Source: a virus. Taken from it: a stretch of 64,000 nt of DNA. Both the position numbers and the translations under genes were made by a program. The first letter of the stretch is position 1. Every line of letters begins with the position of its first letter. The notes beneath the pieces are model-generated. The model was not told the DNA's origin. It was given only the letters and a program-made list of their open reading frames with translations, and made no database searches. Location of the stretch: positions 32,001 through 96,000 of IMG/VR virus record IMGVR_UViG_3300035696_001556; one strand, given 5' to 3'. Shown piece by piece: positions 12,415-29,621 of the stretch.

Positions 12415-13310
12415 ATACCCTCGATGAAAAAGCAAGGATAGTCCTGCAGCCTGAATCTTTTGAGCACTATATAAAGGCACTCAACTTAGAACCAATAGAA
12501 AAGGTAAAAGAAAGATTCGAGAAGGTAAGGCCTGTCAATGAGATGATCCCGTATATAAACAATGGTCAGCTGGATAAAGATCGAACAAGATTAGAGTTGG
12601 AAACCGGTAAAGTCATAAATAAGAATCAGCCCGGAAAATTTTTGGTAAACATGAATCCAGAGCTTGTGAGAAGAATGTATAAGCCACAAAATGTTATAAA
12701 CTTCTACGAAAAAGAGTTAAAAACTGTCGGTAAGAGTGCAAGCTTAGAATCTCTTAATTGCAAGATAGCAGCTATTACTCTCCTTAATACTATAAAACCT
12801 AAACTCAGAGGATTTTCAAAATATATAGCGGCTCTTGATGAGGCTTCTTGGTATCTCGAGGAGGAGCCCCGAATAAGATCTTCGGAGAGGCTTTATAAAT
12901 TAAGTTCAAAACTTCCCAAGGATAAGTGTGCGAGTCAGATCGAACGCATAAAGACAGTAGCTGCCCAGCTTAATGATCCAGGCTATAAGGATCCAGGTAG
13001 AGTAACAACCAAGGGGCACCAGACTTTAGCCCAGCTTATGATAGAGACAAAAGGGACGGTACAAGAATTTCTTAAGAAAGTTGAAGAGTGGGCTAAACCT
13101 GAGGAGAAAGATACCTATAAGGACAGAATGGTCAAGCAGATTTATAATTTTTTCATCAAGCATATGGAACATCACAAGACGGATACACCTCAGGATATGA
13201 TAAAGGTAAACAAGGAAGCGGATGAGCTCGTTTCAGAGATCATAAAAGCTGCAAGCATATCACAGCAACTTATAGACAAAATTGAAAAATATAAGAGAAC
13301 ATTAAATTAA
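12411..13310 (+). CDS. hypothetical protein, possible head-internal protein
   Basis: 299-aa ORF, ATGA overlap with previous gene. Confidence 0.65.
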   Translation: MNTLDEKARIVLQPESFEHYIKALNLEPIEKVKERFEKVRPVNEMIPYINNGQLDKDRTRLELETGKVINKNQPGKFLVNMNPELVRRMYKPQNVINFYEKELKTVGKSASLESLNCKIAAITLLNTIKPKLRGFSKYIAALDEASWYLEEEPRIRSSERLYKLSSKLPKDKCASQIERIKTVAAQLNDPGYKDPGRVTTKGHQTLAQLMIETKGTVQEFLKKVEEWAKPEEKDTYKDRMVKQIYNFFIKHMEHHKTDTPQDMIKVNKEADELVSEIIKAASISQQLIDKIEKYKRTLN

Positions 13311-13328
13311 GATCAAATAGGAGGCTCT

Positions 13329-13799
13329 ATGAACAAGCTTGTTGGGATGTTCACAGGATCTGGTAAACCTGATGAAAAAATCAGCTCCATGAGAGTGGCA
13401 TCACTTGCTGTGGTGTTTGTAGTCCTTGCCATCTACGTTGCTCAAAACATCATTTCGATGGTACATAACGGAGGGATAGTATCTCTTAGCTGGGAAATGG
13501 TCTCATTGCTAACTGCAGTCCTTGGAGTGAAAGCCTATCAGCACAGAAACGAACTTATTAATGGCAACGGTAGTGGTGGAGATGACGATGACGACGAGAC
13601 TACCACTGCTGTGCGCCCTGAGCCTACTGTGCCAGCAGCGATAGTGGCTCCACCCGGAACACCTGTAGCGATAACACCGGTGCCTTCTAACATAACTAGT
13701 TCTGGATTATCTAATGTGAGTAAAATCGCCGCAGAAGTAGAGAATCCTAAAGTCCTTTCCGCTGTAGAAAAGGTTGCTGAGATGGTGGAGAAGAAGTAA
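13329..13799 (+). CDS. two-TM membrane protein, holin-like
   Basis: SSMRV followed by two hydrophobic helices ending GVKAYQH; AGGAGG RBS. Confidence 0.55.
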   Translation: MNKLVGMFTGSGKPDEKISSMRVASLAVVFVVLAIYVAQNIISMVHNGGIVSLSWEMVSLLTAVLGVKAYQHRNELINGNGSGGDDDDDETTTAVRPEPTVPAAIVAPPGTPVAITPVPSNITSSGLSNVSKIAAEVENPKVLSAVEKVAEMVEKK

Positions 13800-13800
13800 A

Positions 13801-15243
13801 ATGCCACACGCAGGTAAGTTCAAAGTTAAAAAGAACTTCATGTCGAAATGCATGCGTACGACCAAACGTGAGGGTAAAAAACCCGATCAAAGTCTGGCGC
13901 AGTGCCTTTCGATGTGGAGAGAGAAACATAGGGGTAAGGATGCGGCGGATGAGTCTCTTGCTTATAAAGATCCTCACCCAAATTATGTGAAAGATCATGG
14001 AAACTGTCCTATATGTGGAGAACACTATGAGATGACATGCAAATGTCGATTAGGGAATAAAATATGCCCTAATAAACATGGATGGCACACATGTCCAATA
14101 CATAAAAAAGTTTTTATAGGAGATTCACACAGACTAGGTGTATTAAGAGCAGGGTCTAAATGCGTGTGCCCTATAGAAGAAGATAATTCTTTATCTCCTG
14201 AAAAAGATGCTTTCCAGAATTACTATGATCAAGAAGATGGCGGAGATGTAGCTCTACCTAAAGATTTAAAAAGTCGTAAAGATTTAAAAAATCGTAAACA
14301 AAAAGATGCTTCTGTAATAGACAGAGTCGCAGGTAATCTTGAAAAGACAATGGAGCAGGCCGAAAAATCCGATAAGCCTACAGTGTTCCTGGGAGGATCT
14401 TGCAAAGACAATAAGTGGAGAGAAGATCTAAAGGACGAGTTCAAGGACAAGCTCTTTTTTATAGATCCCTACGACCCTGATTGGGACCCCGAAGAAAACA
14501 TTTATAAAGAATTAGAAGCAATAGTTAATGCGGATCATAGTATATTTTATGATAGTGGGGAGGGCTCGGACAAGGAGATGGAGTTCCTAGATAATACAGA
14601 CAGGGATTATGAGGAGTTTGACGATTTAGAGGATTTAAAAGGTTATTTGAATAGGTTGGCAGAACCGGTAACTAAGAAAGCATGCGTTTCGGAAATGCTT
14701 AGGAGAGTAGCAAGACTCCTGGAATCCCATGAAAAATATGGATTTTTGGGAATCAAAGTACCGGATAACATAGCGAATAAGATTAAAGCCGTAGGCAAAG
14801 AAATCCCTGACAATGAGCTTTATCTCGATACCGAAGGTTATGGGTCTTCATCTAAAACAGGCCGAGAAAATGATACTCATATAACTTTAGTGTTCGGTTT
14901 AAGATTTAGTGATCCAGACATATTAAAAGAGGATTTTAAGGGCGTCGAACCTTTTACGGTAACGCTTAATAAAACATCTTTATTTACAGAAAATCCAAAA
15001 TGTGATGTGTTGAAGGTTGGAGTAAATAGCCCTGCTCTTCAGGATCTTCATGAGAAACTTAGAGAGAAATATCATCCTTCAAAAGAAAAAAGTAGTTATA
15101 TACCTCATTGCACAATTTCGTATATGAAAAAAGGTTATGCGGAAAAATATATAGACAAAGATTTCAGTGAATACACATTTAAAGTCAATGAAGTTTTCTT
15201 CTCATATGAAAGTAAAAAGACTACCATTAAACTGGGTAGATAA
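13801..15243 (+). CDS. multidomain protein: Cys/His Zn-binding region + nucleoside 2-deoxyribosyltransferase-like domain + Acb1-like 2H phosphodiesterase
   Basis: ATG at 13801 right after the previous stop; PTVFLGGSC...W...FIDPY motif; 2H motifs HITL (14878) and HCTI (15106). Confidence 0.7.
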   Translation: MPHAGKFKVKKNFMSKCMRTTKREGKKPDQSLAQCLSMWREKHRGKDAADESLAYKDPHPNYVKDHGNCPICGEHYEMTCKCRLGNKICPNKHGWHTCPIHKKVFIGDSHRLGVLRAGSKCVCPIEEDNSLSPEKDAFQNYYDQEDGGDVALPKDLKSRKDLKNRKQKDASVIDRVAGNLEKTMEQAEKSDKPTVFLGGSCKDNKWREDLKDEFKDKLFFIDPYDPDWDPEENIYKELEAIVNADHSIFYDSGEGSDKEMEFLDNTDRDYEEFDDLEDLKGYLNRLAEPVTKKACVSEMLRRVARLLESHEKYGFLGIKVPDNIANKIKAVGKEIPDNELYLDTEGYGSSSKTGRENDTHITLVFGLRFSDPDILKEDFKGVEPFTVTLNKTSLFTENPKCDVLKVGVNSPALQDLHEKLREKYHPSKEKSSYIPHCTISYMKKGYAEKYIDKDFSEYTFKVNEVFFSYESKKTTIKLGR

Positions 15244-19109: not shown

Positions 19110-19283
19110 ATGAAGCGTACAAACATACATCTGACGGAAGATGAGATTAAGAATCTCGACAAGATATCGGAGCGTTCGGAATTGAAAAAAGCTGAACTTA
19201 TCCGAAGAGCCGTTGATGATTTCATTGAGAATTATAAAATTTATGGTTTGACAATAAAAGGTATAACAGGAGTAGTGAGATGA
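19110..19283 (+). CDS. CopG/ribbon-helix-helix DNA-binding protein (57 aa, not in ORF track)
   Basis: MKRTNIHLTEDEIKNLDKISERSELKKAELIRRAVDDFI; stop overlaps the glycosyltransferase ATG (ATGA). Confidence 0.8.
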   Translation: MKRTNIHLTEDEIKNLDKISERSELKKAELIRRAVDDFIENYKIYGLTIKGITGVVR

Positions 19284-22200
19284 CCACAGATAGTAAATTA
19301 CTTAGCCTGAATCTTATCGTAGGCCCCGGTGAAGAAAAGGAATTAAAGCGATGTTTAGAGTCTTGTAAAGGAGACCTCTTCGATGAGATTTGTGTCACGG
19401 TTGCTACTCCAGATCCAAGTGAATCCCTTACGGCTATAGCCCTCGAGTATACCACAAATGTTACCTATTTCAAATGGATAAAGGATTTCTCTGCCGCGAG
19501 AAATTTCAACTTTGCTCAATCACATTGTACACATGTGCTTTGGTTGGATGCAGACGACGTCATCAAGCCTGATAATTATCAAAAGCTTCTAGCGCTGAAA
19601 CCGTCCCTTGCTGGTTTCGATATTATTTTGCTTCCCTATGTCTATGCTCACGATGACAAAGATAACCCTGCAGTAGTTCTACCTAGAGAGCGTATAATCA
19701 AAAATTGTCCAGAGATTTCCTGGCACGATCCTATTCATGAATATTTGAACATGGAACCACAGTTCAAGATGAAAAAAGAAGAGAACATTTTCATAGACCA
19801 TTACAGGACAAAGCCATTTAATCCAAAAAGAAATTTAGACCTTTTAAAAATAGAATATGAGAAGCCTAACTGTTCCGCTAGGATAAAGTTCTATTATGGC
19901 AAAGAACTTGCGGATAACAACGAATGGGATGCAGCTGTTCCAGTCCTTGAGCAATTAATAAATTCCGGAGAGGGCTTCAGGGATAATCTGGTGATAGCAT
20001 GCATAAAATTGTCTAGATACTATCACACAAAGAAAAATTACAATGCTGCGAAAGCCATAGCTCTTAAAGGTATAAGTTTCAGTAACTGCTATGCAGAAAA
20101 CTATCTTCTTTTGGGAGATGTTTATTGGGAACAAAAAGACAGGGATAATGCGACAAAATATTATTTGGAAGCCATGACAAAGAAAGTTGGTACCGCAGGG
20201 ATGTCTCAAGAGGCAGATTATTATAGATTCCTACCGGCATGGAGACTGGCCCAGGTATACCGAGAAATGTATGACTTCAAAAAAGCTTTAAAATACTGCG
20301 ATATAGCGATAGAATGTAAGCCGGATTCGAAGGAGTTGAAAGATTATCGTAATGACCTGGTAAGAAGCTCTTCCGCAGTAAAAACAGATCTTGTTATTAA
20401 AGATGAGGTTGAAAAAGCTTTTGAGGATTTGGCTAAAAAAATGAATCTCCACATGGAAGTTGAAACTAACAACATAGAGTATGCTAAATTGAAGATCAGT
20501 AAAATAATGAAAATGAAAATTGCTTGGATGCTCCCTTCTCTAAATATGGCCGAGCCTTCTACAAGAATAAGAAGAATCAATATACATAAGTATTTTGAAA
20601 AAGTCGGGACAGAAAGTGTCATTGTCGATAATTATAGAGGAAAAAATATATATGAGTTAAGGAATAAAGTAGCTGATTCAGATGTGGTTATTTTTACAAT
20701 ATATGGTTTTGAAGAATTAGAGCTGATGAAATACTTCAAGTCTTTAGGTAAAAAAATAATTTTTGATTTCAATGAGGCTATTTTTGGATATCCACTGCAA
20801 CATGAGTGTTTTAATCAAACCGATGTCGTTGTTACATGTTCAACAGTCCTTGCAGAAATGACCGCCAAAAGCGGATACACTAAACCCATAGCAGTCATAA
20901 AAGATGCTGTGGAAGACACACCAGACAAGCCGTCTGCAGTTTATGAGAATAGATATGAGAAGCCTAAAGCACTTTACATAGGTATGGGAGGTAACAGCTT
21001 TCTCGCTTCGGAATATCTTAAGGATGCAATCGATAGGGCTGGATATGATTTGATAATGATAACTGAATGGGATAATGCTACCAAGAAATGGGACCTTAAT
21101 ACCTGGCCTAAAGATATGTGTGCCTGCGATGTGGTGCTATGCCCTCAAAGGGTGGACGTCCAGCCAGCTAAAAGTAATGTCAAGGTTACAACCGCTATGG
21201 ATCTTGGTATGCCGGTCATAGCTTCTCCTCTCCAAGCATACAAGGAAATTATCAAGGATGGAGAGAATGGGTTTCTGTGTGATAAACAAGAGGAGTGGTA
21301 TAACGCCCTTATTAAACTCAAGGATCCGGAACTCAGAAAAAAAATAGGATTGGCCGGTAAAAACTCTATAGATGAATATTCTTTGGAGAGTATCGCCAAC
21401 AACTGGAGGATGCTGCTGGAAACAGTAGTATATGGACGTGTAAAATCCGTAATAGACAAAGAGGAGATAAAAGAAAGCGAGACACCAGAAAAAGCAAGAG
21501 ATCAAGTAGATATTATAATCACAAACTACAATAATGTCGAGTATCTTAAACTATGTGTCAGTTCTATAATGATGAATACTCTCCACCCATTTAATCTGAT
21601 TATTTCTGATGCAGGTAGTGATAAAGAAACGTGGGATTATCTTAACAGCTTAAAAGGTGTCACCATTTTAGGTAAACAGGGAGAACGTAAAAATTTCTCC
21701 CAGACTTGTAACGCAGGCATAGGTCAATCTACGACCAAATATTTTGTCATAATGAATTCAGACTTGATAGTATCAAAATGCTGGTTAACTCCTCTCGTTG
21801 AGAAAATGAACGGCATTAACAGGTTGGCAGCTTGTGGAGTCCTATCTAATTGTGATAGGGGTTGGTTACATGGGGTGCCTGGAAAACCTACATATCCTAT
21901 GAAGCTTCCTAAAGCAGATATAGAATTAGTACCAGGAATGAAGTATGACCAGATTAAACCGCATCTAGATGAGCTATGTAGTTTCATGCAGGAATCTAAT
22001 AAAAATAATGCTGGAAAATATATAAAACAAGATTGGGTGGCGGCTTATTGCACGATTTTTGCAAAGAGCGCTTTAGAAGAAGTTGGATATTTTGATACTC
22101 AATTCAAAAACGGCTGTGAGGATCTCGATTTGTGCAGAAGATTAAGTAATTGCGGATATGAGATAGGTCAAGCTATAGACTCTTTTGTGTTTCACTTCGG

Positions 22201-24670
22201 AGGTGTCTCTAGAGGAGCCTATCAATCTGAAAATAGAGAGTCTTACGATAAAGAAGATCAAGAGAATCATTTAATGTTTCAGAGGAAGTGGGAAAGACAG
22301 AAAGTTGTAATCTGGACTGGTCCAGCATGGGAACCATGGTCGAAAAAAGAAGTAGATAAAGGGATGGCAGGGTCTGAGACTTGGGCAACTTATTTAGCTG
22401 AAGCTTTTGCTAGAAAAAATTATGAAGTTACTATCTATAATGATATCCCTGGGGATAAGAATGGCTATATTTTGGAGCCCGTAGAGGGACTCAATAATCC
22501 TGTAAAATACAGGGATCATACTAGATTTAATGAGGATATCCAGTTCCAATATGTGGATTATCTGATAAGCTCCAGAAGTCTTGAAGCCATAAAAGCGAAT
22601 GTACATACTCATCACAGATATGTCATGATCCACGATATTTGGATTTCGGGAGACCCTAATTTTGATATCATGTCCTGGAAGATTGATGGATATGCTTACT
22701 TAAGTGAATGGCACAAACAGTTTTTATTGCAGCACCATAAGATACCGGAAAATAAGATGTTTTTAACTGCTAATGGTGAAAATTTTAAAAATTATGAGGA
22801 TGTAGATAGCTATGTTAAAAAGAATCAAGCTGTCTACAGTTCGAGTCCGGACAGAGGACTTTACGAACTTTTAACTGTTTTGCCAGTAATAAGAGAAAGC
22901 GTGCCAGATTTTCAGATAGTTGTAGCATATGGTTTTTATAACTGGGAATCTATGTGCAAAGCTAGAAAAGATGAAAAAGGATTACAAGCTATAGCTACCA
23001 TAAAAAAAGCCATGGAGCAGCCAGGAGTAGTTTACGTGGATCGGATAGATAAAAAGACTTTGGCTAAATACCAGAAAGAATCTAAAGTTTGGTTGTATCC
23101 TACATGGTTTAGCGAAACACAGTGCTGCCTTCCTGGTACAAAAATTGTAACTAATAGTGGTTTAAAAAATATAGAAGATGTTACCTCAGAAGATTGTGTA
23201 TATACACATAAGGCTAATTATAAAAAAGTGTCTAAAGCCATGTCCAGAGAGGCAGATGAAGACATTTATGAGATAAAAGTAGAATATTTAAAAGACCCAT
23301 TAAGAGTAACTGGGGAACATCCTATTTATGTTCTACAAAAAAAGAATATAAAATGTTTGAGAATTAGTCATATGGTATGTACAAAGAGAGGGGATCATTG
23401 TAAAACTGATTTTTGTTATTCTAGCCATTATGGTAAAAAATATTATACACCAGGAGCTTGTAAAAATTTAATAGAGAACAAAAATCCTTGTTGGTTAAAA
23501 TCTTCAGAGTTGCATGAAAAAGATTATTTAATATATCCTATCAACAAACTAAACAAGGAATTGGAAGATTTCTCTAATTTTGTTGTTAGTGATAAGCTAA
23601 TTGATGGGGTTATCCGAACAAATAAAACAAAAAGGGGTAGGCCACACGGTATTGAAAATTTCACGATGAATGAAGACTTTTTGGAACTGTGTGGATGGTA
23701 TGTCTCTGAAGGCTGCTTCGATTCGATATCAAGAATCCATTTTGCCCTCAATAAAAAAGAAGAAAAAGAAGCAGTTTTTATAGAAACCCAACTTCAAAAA
23801 TTGAAGTTAAAAACAAAAAGATACTACGCGAAAGATACTAAATCTTTGAGCGTCTCCACTAGTTCCGTAGTGTTAGGTAGGTTTTTTGTGGATAATTTTG
23901 GTTCAGGTGCTGAAAACAAACATATACCTGAATGGATTAAAAATTTAGGACCACAATACCTTAAATACTTTTTGAAAGGTATACTAAAAGGTGATGGTAG
24001 TAAAAATGTTGGATGTACAGTTATTAACTCTGCTAGTGAAAATTTGATATATGATTTATTTGATATACTTTTGAAATTTAAATGTGTATCTTCTTTGGGT
24101 AATTTTGAAAAACCCAGACTTTATAAAATTAATGGAAAAGTTATGAGAGACTATACAGAAAAGTTAAAAGGGTATAGTCTGTCGTGCTCCATGTCACAAA
24201 ATCCAGAATTATTTAATTTTATTGGTTTTAAGGCTGTTGCGTCAAAAAAAATAAGTATTCACGGATTTTTTGACGAGGACAATGTTTATTTGCCTATTCG
24301 TAAAATATCAAAAAGTAGATATGTAGGTAAAGTCCACAATCTTGAGGTGAAAGAGGATAACTCCTATATTGCCAATGGTGTGACAGTTCATAACTGTATA
24401 ACCGCAACTACAGCTGGTTTGTCAAAATCTGCTATAGTTACTTCTAAATATGCCGGTTTAATTACCACTGTTGGAGATTCTGGCATACTTTTAGAGGGAA
24501 GCAGCACGTCTGCCGAGTATCTCAATAAATTCACTGAAGAAGCCATTAAACTTCTTAAAGACGAAGATTATAGAAGAACATGGGCTGAAAAGGCCTGGAA
24601 TAAGATGCAAATGTATTCTTGGGATAAAATAGCCAATGGATGGATAGAACAATTTAACAAGTTTAAATAA
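19280..24670 (+). CDS. giant multidomain glycosyltransferase (GT2-TPR, GT4-like, GT2, GT4-like), intein-containing
   Basis: DFSAARN...WLDADD...IHEY (SunS/SgtA-like GT2), TPRs, GMPVIASP...DGENGFL, second GT2 (MNSD, EDLDLC, HFGGVS), YSSSPDRGL...YPTWFSET. Confidence 0.9.
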   Translation: MTTDSKLLSLNLIVGPGEEKELKRCLESCKGDLFDEICVTVATPDPSESLTAIALEYTTNVTYFKWIKDFSAARNFNFAQSHCTHVLWLDADDVIKPDNYQKLLALKPSLAGFDIILLPYVYAHDDKDNPAVVLPRERIIKNCPEISWHDPIHEYLNMEPQFKMKKEENIFIDHYRTKPFNPKRNLDLLKIEYEKPNCSARIKFYYGKELADNNEWDAAVPVLEQLINSGEGFRDNLVIACIKLSRYYHTKKNYNAAKAIALKGISFSNCYAENYLLLGDVYWEQKDRDNATKYYLEAMTKKVGTAGMSQEADYYRFLPAWRLAQVYREMYDFKKALKYCDIAIECKPDSKELKDYRNDLVRSSSAVKTDLVIKDEVEKAFEDLAKKMNLHMEVETNNIEYAKLKISKIMKMKIAWMLPSLNMAEPSTRIRRINIHKYFEKVGTESVIVDNYRGKNIYELRNKVADSDVVIFTIYGFEELELMKYFKSLGKKIIFDFNEAIFGYPLQHECFNQTDVVVTCSTVLAEMTAKSGYTKPIAVIKDAVEDTPDKPSAVYENRYEKPKALYIGMGGNSFLASEYLKDAIDRAGYDLIMITEWDNATKKWDLNTWPKDMCACDVVLCPQRVDVQPAKSNVKVTTAMDLGMPVIASPLQAYKEIIKDGENGFLCDKQEEWYNALIKLKDPELRKKIGLAGKNSIDEYSLESIANNWRMLLETVVYGRVKSVIDKEEIKESETPEKARDQVDIIITNYNNVEYLKLCVSSIMMNTLHPFNLIISDAGSDKETWDYLNSLKGVTILGKQGERKNFSQTCNAGIGQSTTKYFVIMNSDLIVSKCWLTPLVEKMNGINRLAACGVLSNCDRGWLHGVPGKPTYPMKLPKADIELVPGMKYDQIKPHLDELCSFMQESNKNNAGKYIKQDWVAAYCTIFAKSALEEVGYFDTQFKNGCEDLDLCRRLSNCGYEIGQAIDSFVFHFGGVSRGAYQSENRESYDKEDQENHLMFQRKWERQKVVIWTGPAWEPWSKKEVDKGMAGSETWATYLAEAFARKNYEVTIYNDIPGDKNGYILEPVEGLNNPVKYRDHTRFNEDIQFQYVDYLISSRSLEAIKANVHTHHRYVMIHDIWISGDPNFDIMSWKIDGYAYLSEWHKQFLLQHHKIPENKMFLTANGENFKNYEDVDSYVKKNQAVYSSSPDRGLYELLTVLPVIRESVPDFQIVVAYGFYNWESMCKARKDEKGLQAIATIKKAMEQPGVVYVDRIDKKTLAKYQKESKVWLYPTWFSETQCCLPGTKIVTNSGLKNIEDVTSEDCVYTHKANYKKVSKAMSREADEDIYEIKVEYLKDPLRVTGEHPIYVLQKKNIKCLRISHMVCTKRGDHCKTDFCYSSHYGKKYYTPGACKNLIENKNPCWLKSSELHEKDYLIYPINKLNKELEDFSNFVVSDKLIDGVIRTNKTKRGRPHGIENFTMNEDFLELCGWYVSEGCFDSISRIHFALNKKEEKEAVFIETQLQKLKLKTKRYYAKDTKSLSVSTSSVVLGRFFVDNFGSGAENKHIPEWIKNLGPQYLKYFLKGILKGDGSKNVGCTVINSASENLIYDLFDILLKFKCVSSLGNFEKPRLYKINGKVMRDYTEKLKGYSLSCSMSQNPELFNFIGFKAVASKKISIHGFFDEDNVYLPIRKISKSRYVGKVHNLEVKEDNSYIANGVTVHNCITATTAGLSKSAIVTSKYAGLITTVGDSGILLEGSSTSAEYLNKFTEEAIKLLKDEDYRRTWAEKAWNKMQMYSWDKIANGWIEQFNKFK
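23123..24394 (+). mobile_element. intein (424 aa) with LAGLIDADG homing endonuclease
   Basis: CCLPGT block A, TGEHP block B, LCGWYVSEG and LKGILKGDGS, VHNLEV...VTVHN followed by +1 Cys. Confidence 0.95.
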
Positions 24671-26435: not shown

Positions 26436-26948
26436 ATGTTACGCGTATCCGCTATAGAGGCCGCTAAGTTAGTTGTAGCGGCTTCATTTGTTTTAAAAGA
26501 CGATGTCAAGTTCGAAGGATTCGATGATGTCGGTGAGACTGAATTGTCTCATACCGTTAATGTTCGCAAAAACGGTGAGATGTCCGAGTACGAACAAGAA
26601 TTCAATCAACTGGATATATGGGCTGATCTGTCTTTGGGATTTACCGGAGAACCGCCAAACAGTTATAGAGTGTTTAATTCCATGATAGTTGACTGGGTCG
26701 ATGAACATGAAGATGAACTTAAAAAAATAATAAATCCAAAGCTTATACCATTTTTGAAAGAAAAATTTCCAGATTTGGATGTGTCGGATCTTAAAGAAGA
26801 TTTTGATGATTATATTTTTGAAGACCAGGTAGATTATGTTGCGGGTATTGATGAAGAGGATGGAAGGCTTCATTTTTGTATTGAGATGGTATTAGACATT
26901 GAGAATGAGGATGATGATAAAAATTTTGATAAAAAAGAGGAATCATAA
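26436..26948 (+). CDS. acidic hypothetical protein (TnpB target gene, replaced 3' end)
   Basis: 170-aa ORF; its C-terminal region is repeated in divergent form at 28197..28331. Confidence 0.75.
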   Translation: MLRVSAIEAAKLVVAASFVLKDDVKFEGFDDVGETELSHTVNVRKNGEMSEYEQEFNQLDIWADLSLGFTGEPPNSYRVFNSMIVDWVDEHEDELKKIINPKLIPFLKEKFPDLDVSDLKEDFDDYIFEDQVDYVAGIDEEDGRLHFCIEMVLDIENEDDDKNFDKKEES

Positions 26949-28197
26949 AAATAATTAATATTATGATAAATCGAGGATATAGAGTAGAAATAAAACCCAA
27001 CAACAAACAAAAGACTTTATTAAATAAGGCTTTTGGCGTGGCTCGCTTTGCCTATAATTGGGGCTTAGCGAGGCGTATAGAACTCTACAAAAATGAAAAG
27101 AAATCTTTGTCTGCTATAGATCAACACAAAGAATTGTGTATTCTTAAAAAAGAACAATTTCCTTGGATGTATGAAGTTTCAAAATGCGTTCCCCAAGAGG
27201 CTTTAATAGACTTAGAGGATGCATATAATAAGTTTTATAAATCTAATAAAAATTTTAGGTATCCTAAATTCAAAACCAAACACAAATCAAAAGATTCTTT
27301 TAGAGTATCTTCTGGAAATTTTTATATAACTGAATCTTCTATAAAGATACCAAAAATAGGACAAATAAAACTAAAAGAAAAGAGATATATACCAACAGCA
27401 GGTATAAAGTATAACTCAATCACAGTATCTAAAGACGCAAATAAATATTTTGTGTCCGTCCAGTGTGAAGTAGAAACCCCAGGTGTTACTGAGAAAAAAG
27501 AAACAGTTCTGGGTATTGATTTGGGGATAAAAACTTTACTTGTTTGCTCAAACGGTGAAATTTTTGATAACCCCAAAACAACCTATAAATATGAGAAAAA
27601 ACTGGCTCATGCCCAGAAAAACTTCAGTAGAACTAAAAAAGGATCTAAAAACAGAACCAAAGCCAATTTGAAAGTTCAAAAAATATACAGAAAAATTAAA
27701 AATAGTCGCATGAATAATCTTCACAGAGCTACCAGTGCCGTGGTGAAAACCAAGCCAAGATACATAGTTCTTGAAGATTTAAATGTAAAGGGTATGACTA
27801 AGAATCATCATTTAGCTAAAGCTGTTTCAGATGGATCTTTTGGGGAAATCTATAGGCAATTTAAATATAAAGCTTTATGGTATGGTTCTGAGATCATTGA
27901 CGCAGATAGATTCTATCCTAGTTCCAAATTATGTAGAAAGTGTGGACAGATTAAGGATGATTTAACCCTAGAGGATAGAGTCTATACCTGTGAGTGTGGC
28001 CATACCGAAGACAGAGATTTAAATGCGTCTATTAATTTAGAGGAATATGGTTTGAATACCCTCAGTTCGAGGGGAATTAAAGCCTGTGGAGAAAGTGTAA
28101 GACTTTTAGATGCTATTGATCTAGAAGCAGTTTCTACGAACCAGGAAGAAAACAATACAACTAATTTAGTTAGTTGTATATAAGTTTTTCAGAACGG
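26817..28197 (+). mobile_element. transposase-less IS607-type TnpB cassette carrying a recoded host-gene 3' end
   Basis: Right end ...TTTTTCAGAACGG; no tnpA; left boundary uncertain, at or upstream of the start of the duplicated segment. Confidence 0.65.
26963..28183 (+). CDS. tnpB: RNA-guided endonuclease TnpB (IS200/IS605/IS607 superfamily)
   Basis: N-terminal HTH (ARFAYNWGL), RuvC-I GIDLG, RuvC-II VLEDL, Zn finger CRKC...CEC, RuvC-III DRDLNAS; D-E-D triad intact. Confidence 0.95.
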   Translation: MINRGYRVEIKPNNKQKTLLNKAFGVARFAYNWGLARRIELYKNEKKSLSAIDQHKELCILKKEQFPWMYEVSKCVPQEALIDLEDAYNKFYKSNKNFRYPKFKTKHKSKDSFRVSSGNFYITESSIKIPKIGQIKLKEKRYIPTAGIKYNSITVSKDANKYFVSVQCEVETPGVTEKKETVLGIDLGIKTLLVCSNGEIFDNPKTTYKYEKKLAHAQKNFSRTKKGSKNRTKANLKVQKIYRKIKNSRMNNLHRATSAVVKTKPRYIVLEDLNVKGMTKNHHLAKAVSDGSFGEIYRQFKYKALWYGSEIIDADRFYPSSKLCRKCGQIKDDLTLEDRVYTCECGHTEDRDLNASINLEEYGLNTLSSRGIKACGESVRLLDAIDLEAVSTNQEENNTTNLVSCI

Positions 28198-28217
28198 AGG
28201 ACCAGGTAGATTATATG
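28056..28217 (+). ncRNA. putative omegaRNA (TnpB guide RNA) overlapping the tnpB 3' end, guide from about 28198
   Basis: GCCTGTGGAG scaffold-like motif, terminal hairpin ATACAACTAA-tttag-TTAGTTGTAT (28155-28179), end motif AACGG; boundaries approximate. Confidence 0.65.
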
Positions 28218-28331
28218 CCTGGCATTGATGACGAGGATAATCGACTTCGTTTCTCTATAGAGTTGGTGTTAGATATCGAGGACGATGAAGTAGCACCAGG
28301 GGATAAAGAAGAGCCAAAAACTAAGGAGTAA
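28197..28331 (+). pseudogene. orphaned 3' end (44 codons) of the 26436 gene
   Basis: EDQVDYMPGIDDEDNRLRFSIELVLDIE vs EDQVDYVAGIDEEDGRLHFCIEMVLDIE (21/28 identical); contains the AAGGAG RBS of the next gene. Confidence 0.85.
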
Positions 28332-28337
28332 AATACA

Positions 28338-29621
28338 ATGAGCTTTATTGGACAGGGATTAACAGGTTTATCTCTTTATGCCAGCGTCACAGGATTAGTT
28401 TCTGGATATACTGGATATGGCGAACACGGTCTTACTGGTTTTTTCTATACTGAAGATGGTTCAGATGTAGGGAATACTGGTCTGTGGCGTATTAAGGGTT
28501 CAAAAGTGGTATCTGGAGACTCCTTTGAAGTTACAGGAGTTTCTGCCGAATATGTCTCTTCGCTTACCATTACTAACGATGGTAATGGATCAGCAACAGG
28601 ACCTAGTGTTGTAATAGATGGTGTGGCAACTCCTATCCTTGCCGTTCCAAATACTAATTATCAGTTTGCGCAATGGCTAGGTATCAGCGGAGCTATGTCC
28701 TTCAGCAGTCCTACAGGAGCTTCTTCCAATGTTACAGTTACTGGTGGAGACGCCACAATAGAAGGTACTTTTAAGTACCTTACATATTCATTGACGATAA
28801 CTAATGATGGTCACGGATCAGCCACAGGTCCTAGTACTGTAAACAGTGGCGTAGCAACCCCTATTCTTGCTGTTCCCAACGCCAACTACAGCTTCGCACA
28901 ATGGTTAGGTATCAGTGGAACTTCAACTTTCAGCAATCCTACTGGTGCTTCTAGTAATGTGACGGTCGTTGGCGGAAATGCCACCATAGAAGCTACCTTC
29001 AATCATAACACATATCTTCTCACAATGGCCAATGACGGAAACGGTACAACCGTTCCGACTACTGAAATAGTCTGGTCTGCTACAGGTATTAATGTTCTCG
29101 GTGTCCCAAATCCTGGTTATAGCTTCAATCAATGGGGGGTCACTGGAGGTGTAGTCCTTAGTGGTGCCACTGGATCTTTTGCTGTTGCAACGCTTACTGG
29201 CAATGCTACAGTAACAGCTACTTTTAGTAACAACACGTACACACTGACTATGGCTAATGATGGAAACGGTACAACTGTTCCATCTGGGGCTACAGGAGTA
29301 TTGTCTCACACACCTTTTAATATTTCTGCAGAACCAAGTGCAGACTATGTATTCAGCAATTGGACAGTTGCAGGGGATGCAGTAGTAGCTTCTCCAACAT
29401 CAGTTGTGACTACAGTACAACTTATAGACAGTAGTGATACAGTTACAGCTCATTTCACATTTTCGCAAGCTCGTGAAGGTCCTAATTTTAATACCAGAGA
29501 TTGGGACAGATCAAAACCAGATTTCTTTCAGGCAAATCCATATGCAGGTCAAATAGCACAGATTTGGGATAATCCAAGAGACGGTGAACGTGTCGCAGAA
29601 GAACGTCAGTATCAAGAGTAA
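28338..29621 (+). CDS. surface/virion protein with four divergent InlB B-repeat-like domains
   Basis: Four ~75-aa repeats LT(I/M)xNDGxG...Y.F..W...ATxxAxF; x-T-G-rich. Confidence 0.75.
   Translation: MSFIGQGLTGLSLYASVTGLVSGYTGYGEHGLTGFFYTEDGSDVGNTGLWRIKGSKVVSGDSFEVTGVSAEYVSSLTITNDGNGSATGPSVVIDGVATPILAVPNTNYQFAQWLGISGAMSFSSPTGASSNVTVTGGDATIEGTFKYLTYSLTITNDGHGSATGPSTVNSGVATPILAVPNANYSFAQWLGISGTSTFSNPTGASSNVTVVGGNATIEATFNHNTYLLTMANDGNGTTVPTTEIVWSATGINVLGVPNPGYSFNQWGVTGGVVLSGATGSFAVATLTGNATVTATFSNNTYTLTMANDGNGTTVPSGATGVLSHTPFNISAEPSADYVFSNWTVAGDAVVASPTSVVTTVQLIDSSDTVTAHFTFSQAREGPNFNTRDWDRSKPDFFQANPYAGQIAQIWDNPRDGERVAEERQYQE

Follow-up and report, generated by a model that had tools for sequence, protein, structure and literature searches.

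The window analysed here, 64,000 nt long, is part of a 173,494-bp phage-like contig that is present in two peat metagenome runs and carries a major head protein in the genome at 8004. In it, an intact IS607-type tnpB (26963..28183, plus strand) is flanked by two versions, now diverged, of the final ~43 codons of another gene, which we call the host gene (26436..26948, plus strand). The host gene is kept in a family of large phages, and its 170-aa product has 190 homologs and no assigned function: Pfam gave no significant match, NCBIfam, PHROGs and fold searches gave no match, and ESM Atlas, VIA-align (best Z 4.2) and BFVD gave none that was usable for function. Across the body of the protein, 107-109 of 125 residues are identical to those of the homologs P0002-P0005. 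The stop codon of the host gene and the start of tnpB are 14 nt apart. Beyond the second gene end comes a gene with Flg_new_2 repeats (28338..29621, plus strand), which sits directly 3′ of the host gene in four naive relatives (L003-L006), that is, phages whose allele lacks the cassette. Elsewhere in the window, a 1796-aa glycosyltransferase (19280-24670) contains an intein-like insert at about aa 1290-1705 that starts with C-L-P and ends with H-N before C; in L003, L007 and L012 the homologous protein has 1370-1377 aa.

The duplicated gene end appears as a direct repeat of 26820-26911 at 28197-28288, 75% identical across 92 nt in a self-BLAST of the genome (E 4e-9). Up to the stop, the downstream copy comprises 44 codons and the resident stretch 42, and the two tails are identical at 21 of 28 amino acids with eight synonymous codon differences. 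Because a second assembly (L254) is identical to the window locus over 5,039 nt, and contigs from two peat DNA runs cover both junctions without differences, the locus is no assembly artefact. Among 77 distinct related elements, that of the window alone has its guide region copied upstream (its protein score is 113, against 56 for the next best and a median of 33). Since 0 of the 76 others carry a spare gene tail, this is not a trait of the TnpB clade. Candidate duplications in the relatives L208, L193, L167, L122, L236 and L103 were rejected as chance, microhomology or a downstream paralog; in L122, a 17/20 guide copy after ATGG lies about 1.8 kb beyond the right end, in a paralogous stretch.

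The TnpB protein (406 aa) has the Pfam domain set HTH, OrfB and TNB (PF12323/PF01385/PF07282), with RuvC residues D186, E271 and D352 and four zinc-finger cysteines intact. It scores above the cut-off of NF040570 and below those of the NCBIfam models IS607_TnpB (241 bits, cut-off 350) and IS200_TnpB (340, cut-off 425). Compared with 70%-identical sister proteins, the gene shows no excess in rate (pS 0.7, pN 0.18); among named phages we found only distant relatives, at 46% or less. A predicted omega-RNA scaffold (28058..28197, plus strand) overlaps the 3′ end of tnpB, has a fold z of -3.6 and shows two-sided changes at 17 of 38 consensus pairs across seven relatives; an Rfam search of the region found nothing near the gathering score. 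The scaffold ends in the IS607-type right end GAACGG (28192-28197). This right end, GTTTTTCAGAACGG, terminates at 28197 and is common to relatives, mostly as GAACGG, with C at -3 in the window element. Because the relatives share it and diverge immediately past 28197, the guide is predicted to start at 28198 (28198..28217, plus strand). It matches the resident copy of the gene end at 17 of 20 positions, with mismatches at 2, 18 and 20. By its domains and the structured 3′ RNA, the window protein appears to be a TnpB/omega-RNA nuclease, and RNA-guided cleavage is predicted. The initial annotation had described an intact tnpB without tnpA 14 nt after the gene, a second version of the gene's end directly after 28197, and the same counts for residues, codons and guide mismatches, and each of these was reproduced.

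Guides of other kinds occur among the related elements. Those of L183 and L218 are tRNA 3′ halves (T arm and acceptor), with no matching 5′ half evident upstream, and at L255:1990-2180 the guide region resembles an HNH endonuclease gene in its 3′ portion and the sequence before tnpB is unrelated, so that this too is apparently a one-ended insertion. Outside the window, the genome itself has two more tnpB genes (G000:C1 5305-6501 and 12790-13944). The one at 12790-13944 interrupts a small ORF and has palindromic ends that are also found at both contig ends (67-124 and 173138-173196).

No tnpA was found in the 173,494-bp genome (tblastn best E 0.24); an IS607 serine recombinase is present in some of the close relatives, L165 among them. 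The left end of the clade consists of GGG, five bases and AAC[AT]G, and no such terminal left end lies within 1.2 kb upstream of tnpB. Because both tnpA and a terminal left end are absent, the cassette cannot excise. The same state, tnpB without tnpA and without a recognisable left end, is found in 45 of 69 viral or metagenome relatives. The absence of a left end applies to the terminal part only, as about 43 nt directly before tnpB (26919..26961, plus strand) may be an inner left-end remnant. Against two of nine related left ends this region ranks first of 130, while the other seven show no resemblance, and in a left-end profile run over the genome the stretch before tnpB falls outside the top 25 matches. 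The same region contains a promoter-like site, TTGATA (26926-26931) and AATAAT (26950-26955) spaced by 18 nt and with no ribosome binding site, that ends 7 nt before the tnpB ATG and is unique among 99 plus-strand ORFs (1/99). Both signals are weak: the DNA here is AT-rich, and the region overall is no richer in promoter-like sites than shuffled sequence. No group I intron family was found at the locus, where only 14 nt lie between stop codon and tnpB. Six phage-borne IS607 relatives (L165, L173, L183, L199, L205 and L206) carry, after the left end and ahead of tnpA, a conserved ORF of only ~55-60 aa, and L069 and L070 have a different small ORF whose product looks like a ribbon-helix-helix protein.

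Origins of the two gene ends

The downstream tail (28197..28331, plus strand) is, to judge from the sequences of its relatives, the native one. It is an open frame of 44 codons whose ending, of the type V-S/A/E-P-G/D-D/E-K, is confined to the five homologs closest to the gene body, and at four loci (L003-L006) a host gene with this type of tail runs straight into the same next gene. As the initial annotation anticipated, the nearest tnpB-free alleles continue into the tail found after 28197, and the displaced tail serves the next gene by holding its ribosome binding site, AAGGAG (28323-28328). Compared with the three nearest naive alleles, the displaced tail has pN of 0.08-0.09 and pS of 0.7-1.0. 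Because its frame is intact and its amino acids have diverged from those alleles no further than L003 has from L005/L006 (pN 0.075), it was displaced or refreshed recently. The tail is also translatable from Met135 as a 38-aa peptide (28215-28331), which a gene caller reported in L254.

The resident tail (26817..26948, plus strand), with a 5′ border no further downstream than codon 128, leans toward an origin in another phage lineage. It has Phe128 in common with the homolog P0014, and Cys148 and the loss of Pro136 in common with P0013 and P0014, two proteins whose bodies are identical to that of the window at only 83-86 of 125 positions. In tail trees it groups with this pair (support 93/72 and 80/83), although the AU test does not reject the alternative (p 0.21). 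Sites informative for the near clade run 27:2 in its favor up to codon 125 and 3:4 after it (Fisher p 0.008, post hoc). G+C content is 0.33 in both the resident tail and tnpB, compared with 0.43 in the displaced tail and 0.44 in the next gene. The host gene probably combines a native body (about codons 1-127) with a tail of foreign origin. A structure model places a well-predicted strand at residues 144-154 (pLDDT about 90 over 141-150). Since this predicted strand belongs to the tail that the replacement supplies, the protein would probably not survive truncation at codon 128.

In their divergence the two tails look like ordinary functional alleles (pS 0.72, pN 0.15), which agrees with the earlier view that they are two diverged alleles and no target-site duplication. 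With 72% of synonymous sites different, they had diverged as working alleles long before they met. The idea that the cassette carries a recoded 3′ end found no support in this comparison: Phe128 is also found in P0014, the loci of P0014 and P0013 have no tnpB, omega-RNA or second tail, and the apparent recoding is better read as capture of an allele that was already immune.

The target motif and its loss in the resident allele

In this family the TAM corresponds to the target of the transposase (PMC10690162, PMC11061315), so we read the target motif from the left ends of relatives, anchored on their inner left-end motif. The inner motif is preceded by GG in 23 of 113 upstream matches versus 20 of 348 background matches, and among the GG-preceded matches a G stands at -3 in 20 of 23 versus 7 of 20. 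Position -4 varies in the 23 left-end matches (G 10, A 9, T 3, C 1). When the flanks of L199 are rejoined, the reading frame is restored only if all three G remain in the target. Together these observations suggest a clade target motif of about nGGG. Known TAMs include TGGG for the TnpB of the Clostridium botulinum IStron, in which G at -3 is required most strictly (PMC10690162), and, for certain other IS607 TnpBs, GAGGG (PMC11061315). The TGGG TAM put forward by the initial annotation fits a motif that ends in GGG.

Naive alleles carry this motif directly ahead of the guide match. Trp128 is present in 119 of 120 homologs, with Phe in the window, and Glu129 in all 120; TGGG precedes the guide match in 23 of 23 distinct Trp alleles for which DNA is available. 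Because Trp has a single codon and every Glu codon starts with G, the protein sequence dictates TGGG, which cannot be lost silently. In the resident allele the same position (26817..26820, plus strand) reads TTTG, from Phe128 and the first base of Glu129, and the adjacent target copy (26821..26840, plus strand) has a seed mismatch at guide position 2. The earlier reading of the naive allele as I-W-E-D with TGGG, and of the resident copy as having lost both the TAM and a seed base, is borne out by these sequences; naive homologs do not carry Phe at this site as a rule. A different change is seen in the P0013 allele (L012:5385-5405), sister to the Phe128 allele P0014: it keeps Trp128 and has Thr in place of the near-invariant Val132, which also breaks the guide match.

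How many naive alleles would be cut depends on the seed. The allele of L001 matches the guide at 20 of 20 positions behind TGGG. Guide positions 1-13 are matched by only 4 of the 23 naive alleles, all in distant phages (44-56% protein identity), and these perfect-seed alleles share no more than 52-62 of 92 nt with either tail. In the nearest naive alleles four or five guide positions are mismatched, including 2 and/or 5. In the ISFba1 TnpB, single mismatches at positions 1-13 impair activity (PMC11061315), and because most naive alleles mismatch in this poorly tolerant stretch, only part of the population would be cut. GGG sites with a 5-nt seed in the phage's own genome gave no match above 8/20. 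A 12/12 seed match at G000:117498 was rejected as a target, as it follows CCGG rather than GGG and lies in another reading frame. In L001, 180 nt after the host-gene homolog with the perfect target, there is an unrelated tnpB (L001:5474-6830) with palindromic ends of the type at G000 12790-13944; with 30% identity and different ends, we rejected it as a relative of the window tnpB.

RNA-guided homing and its alternatives

The right end of the element is joined to the TG-GG site in the W128-E129 codons of the host gene. We think it probable that this one-ended IS607-family derivative acts as an RNA-guided homing cassette between co-infecting phages. It would have arisen when an IS607 element inserted into the host gene and recombination followed with a phage bearing a natural Phe128 allele, the only kind that the TnpB would not cut. 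The displaced old tail after the right end would template the guide, while the tail of a second allele, free of the GGG motif, completes the host gene and would make it uncuttable. IS607-family TnpBs take their guide from the right flank and cut about 16-22 nt into the target (PMC11061315). In a mixed infection, TnpB and its omega-RNA would cut seed-matching naive phages at GGG plus guide, near codons 134-136. The left broken end would be resected past the TAM and pair with the donor gene body, while the right end would pair with the displaced tail. Repair would then copy tail, tnpB and omega-RNA, convert Trp128 to Phe and leave a whole, immune gene, and it would also keep the displaced tail fresh. 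The start of the guide, fixed by the conservation of the right end in relatives, supports this scheme, and a TnpA-independent TnpB drive has been demonstrated for plasmids (PMC11870625, as summarised in PMC13565253). By its sequence the cassette appears homing-competent; homing itself is predicted.

Several observations count against homing. All known carriers are one haplotype, the window genome and the identical L254. The junction pattern identified no second carrier in viral contigs (the one match, in L253, fell by chance within an unrelated gene), the cassette is missing from all 33 host-gene loci, and no joints were seen in two DNA sequencing runs. The absence of spare tails from the 76 related elements, the seed mismatches of the nearest naive alleles and the AU test point the same way. 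The single haplotype, the missing spare tails and the seed mismatches would also fit a static scar, a possible but less probable history in which an IS607 element disrupted the gene and one recombination with a Phe128 phage restored it while removing the left end and tnpA. TnpB would then explain only the immunity of the rescuing allele, and the cassette would be vertically inherited and bound to decay. Such a single rescue would leave the same picture as homing where one haplotype is known, elements without tnpA and a recognisable left end are common in the clade, and a recent event would explain the undecayed displaced tail equally well. Yet nuclease and scaffold show no decay, a promoter-like site stands just before tnpB, and this origin yields exactly the structure that homing needs.

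It is improbable that the TnpB merely cuts related co-infecting phages and so excludes their markers, with flanks too diverged for copying. The low identity of the perfect-seed alleles to either tail, and their occurrence in distant phages, would suit such competition, but some close allele with exactly this seed must have given rise to the displaced tail, which means that recipients able to be copied into existed and may be unsampled. Ordinary transposition with target duplication, or a local duplication later recoded in place, is very unlikely and largely refuted: a direct repeat does flank an IS-like gene with a weak left-end-like remnant, but IS607 insertion does not duplicate the target (PMC13565253), between the tails 72% of synonymous sites differ and pN is low, a terminal left end and tnpA are missing (the initial annotation had named this pair as the mark of ordinary transposition), and Phe128, Cys148 and the loss of Pro136 are common with a tnpB-free lineage.

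Relation to known elements

The window cassette resembles IS607-family TnpB systems, such as the C. botulinum IStron (PMC10690162) and ISFba1 (PDB 8IAZ-type, PMC11061315), in its TnpB domains, a GG right end with C at -3, a G-rich target motif and a guide taken from the right flank. Lacking TnpA, a terminal left end and a group I intron, it is a member of neither the IS607 transposons nor the IStrons, and its gene is kept whole by a second tail instead of splicing. Closest in layout are the mobile-ORF gene hybrids of fungal mitochondria (Allomyces macrogynus atp6; Glomus atp6, atp9, cox2 and nad3; PMC3630166, PMC4019555), which have the same order of gene body, second C-terminus in frame (foreign in the hybrids, probably so here), endonuclease ORF and displaced native C-terminus. 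Their nucleases are LAGLIDADG or GIY-YIG proteins that read DNA directly, whereas here the nuclease is a TnpB, in a phage, that would be programmed by the displaced tail.

Free-standing endonucleases of phage T4, such as SegF, spread by break repair in mixed infections (intronless homing; PMC2988022), as we propose for the window cassette. They too are free-standing nucleases whose own allele is protected by differences, and as in such systems, empty alleles with the target exist here and the resident allele differs at the recognition site. Unlike the cassette, the T4 systems are protein-guided and intergenic, cut far from the gene and have no duplicated gene end. The IS605 TnpB gene drive in plasmids cuts the empty allele and biases inheritance without TnpA, which is what we propose by analogy; there the insertion itself splits the TAM from the target, and neither a replacement gene part nor an immune allele is involved (PMC11870625). 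A literature search, in which subscription papers were thinly covered, turned up no account of a TnpB that carries a replacement gene tail.

It seems to us an evenly balanced question whether the locus exemplifies a recurring class not described before: RNA-guided homing cassettes in conserved phage genes, free of transposase and intron, with the severed gene end as guide, an immune replacement end, and a TAM (W-E) that cannot be silently lost. The locus offers a nuclease and a predicted guide, along with a perfect target (L001) and an immune allele that both occur naturally, which make TnpB homing between phages directly testable. If the proposal is true, it would add to splicing and excision a third means by which an RNA-guided selfish element can persist in a conserved gene, and it would help to explain why tnpB genes without a transposase are so common in large phages (45 of the 69 viral or metagenome relatives).
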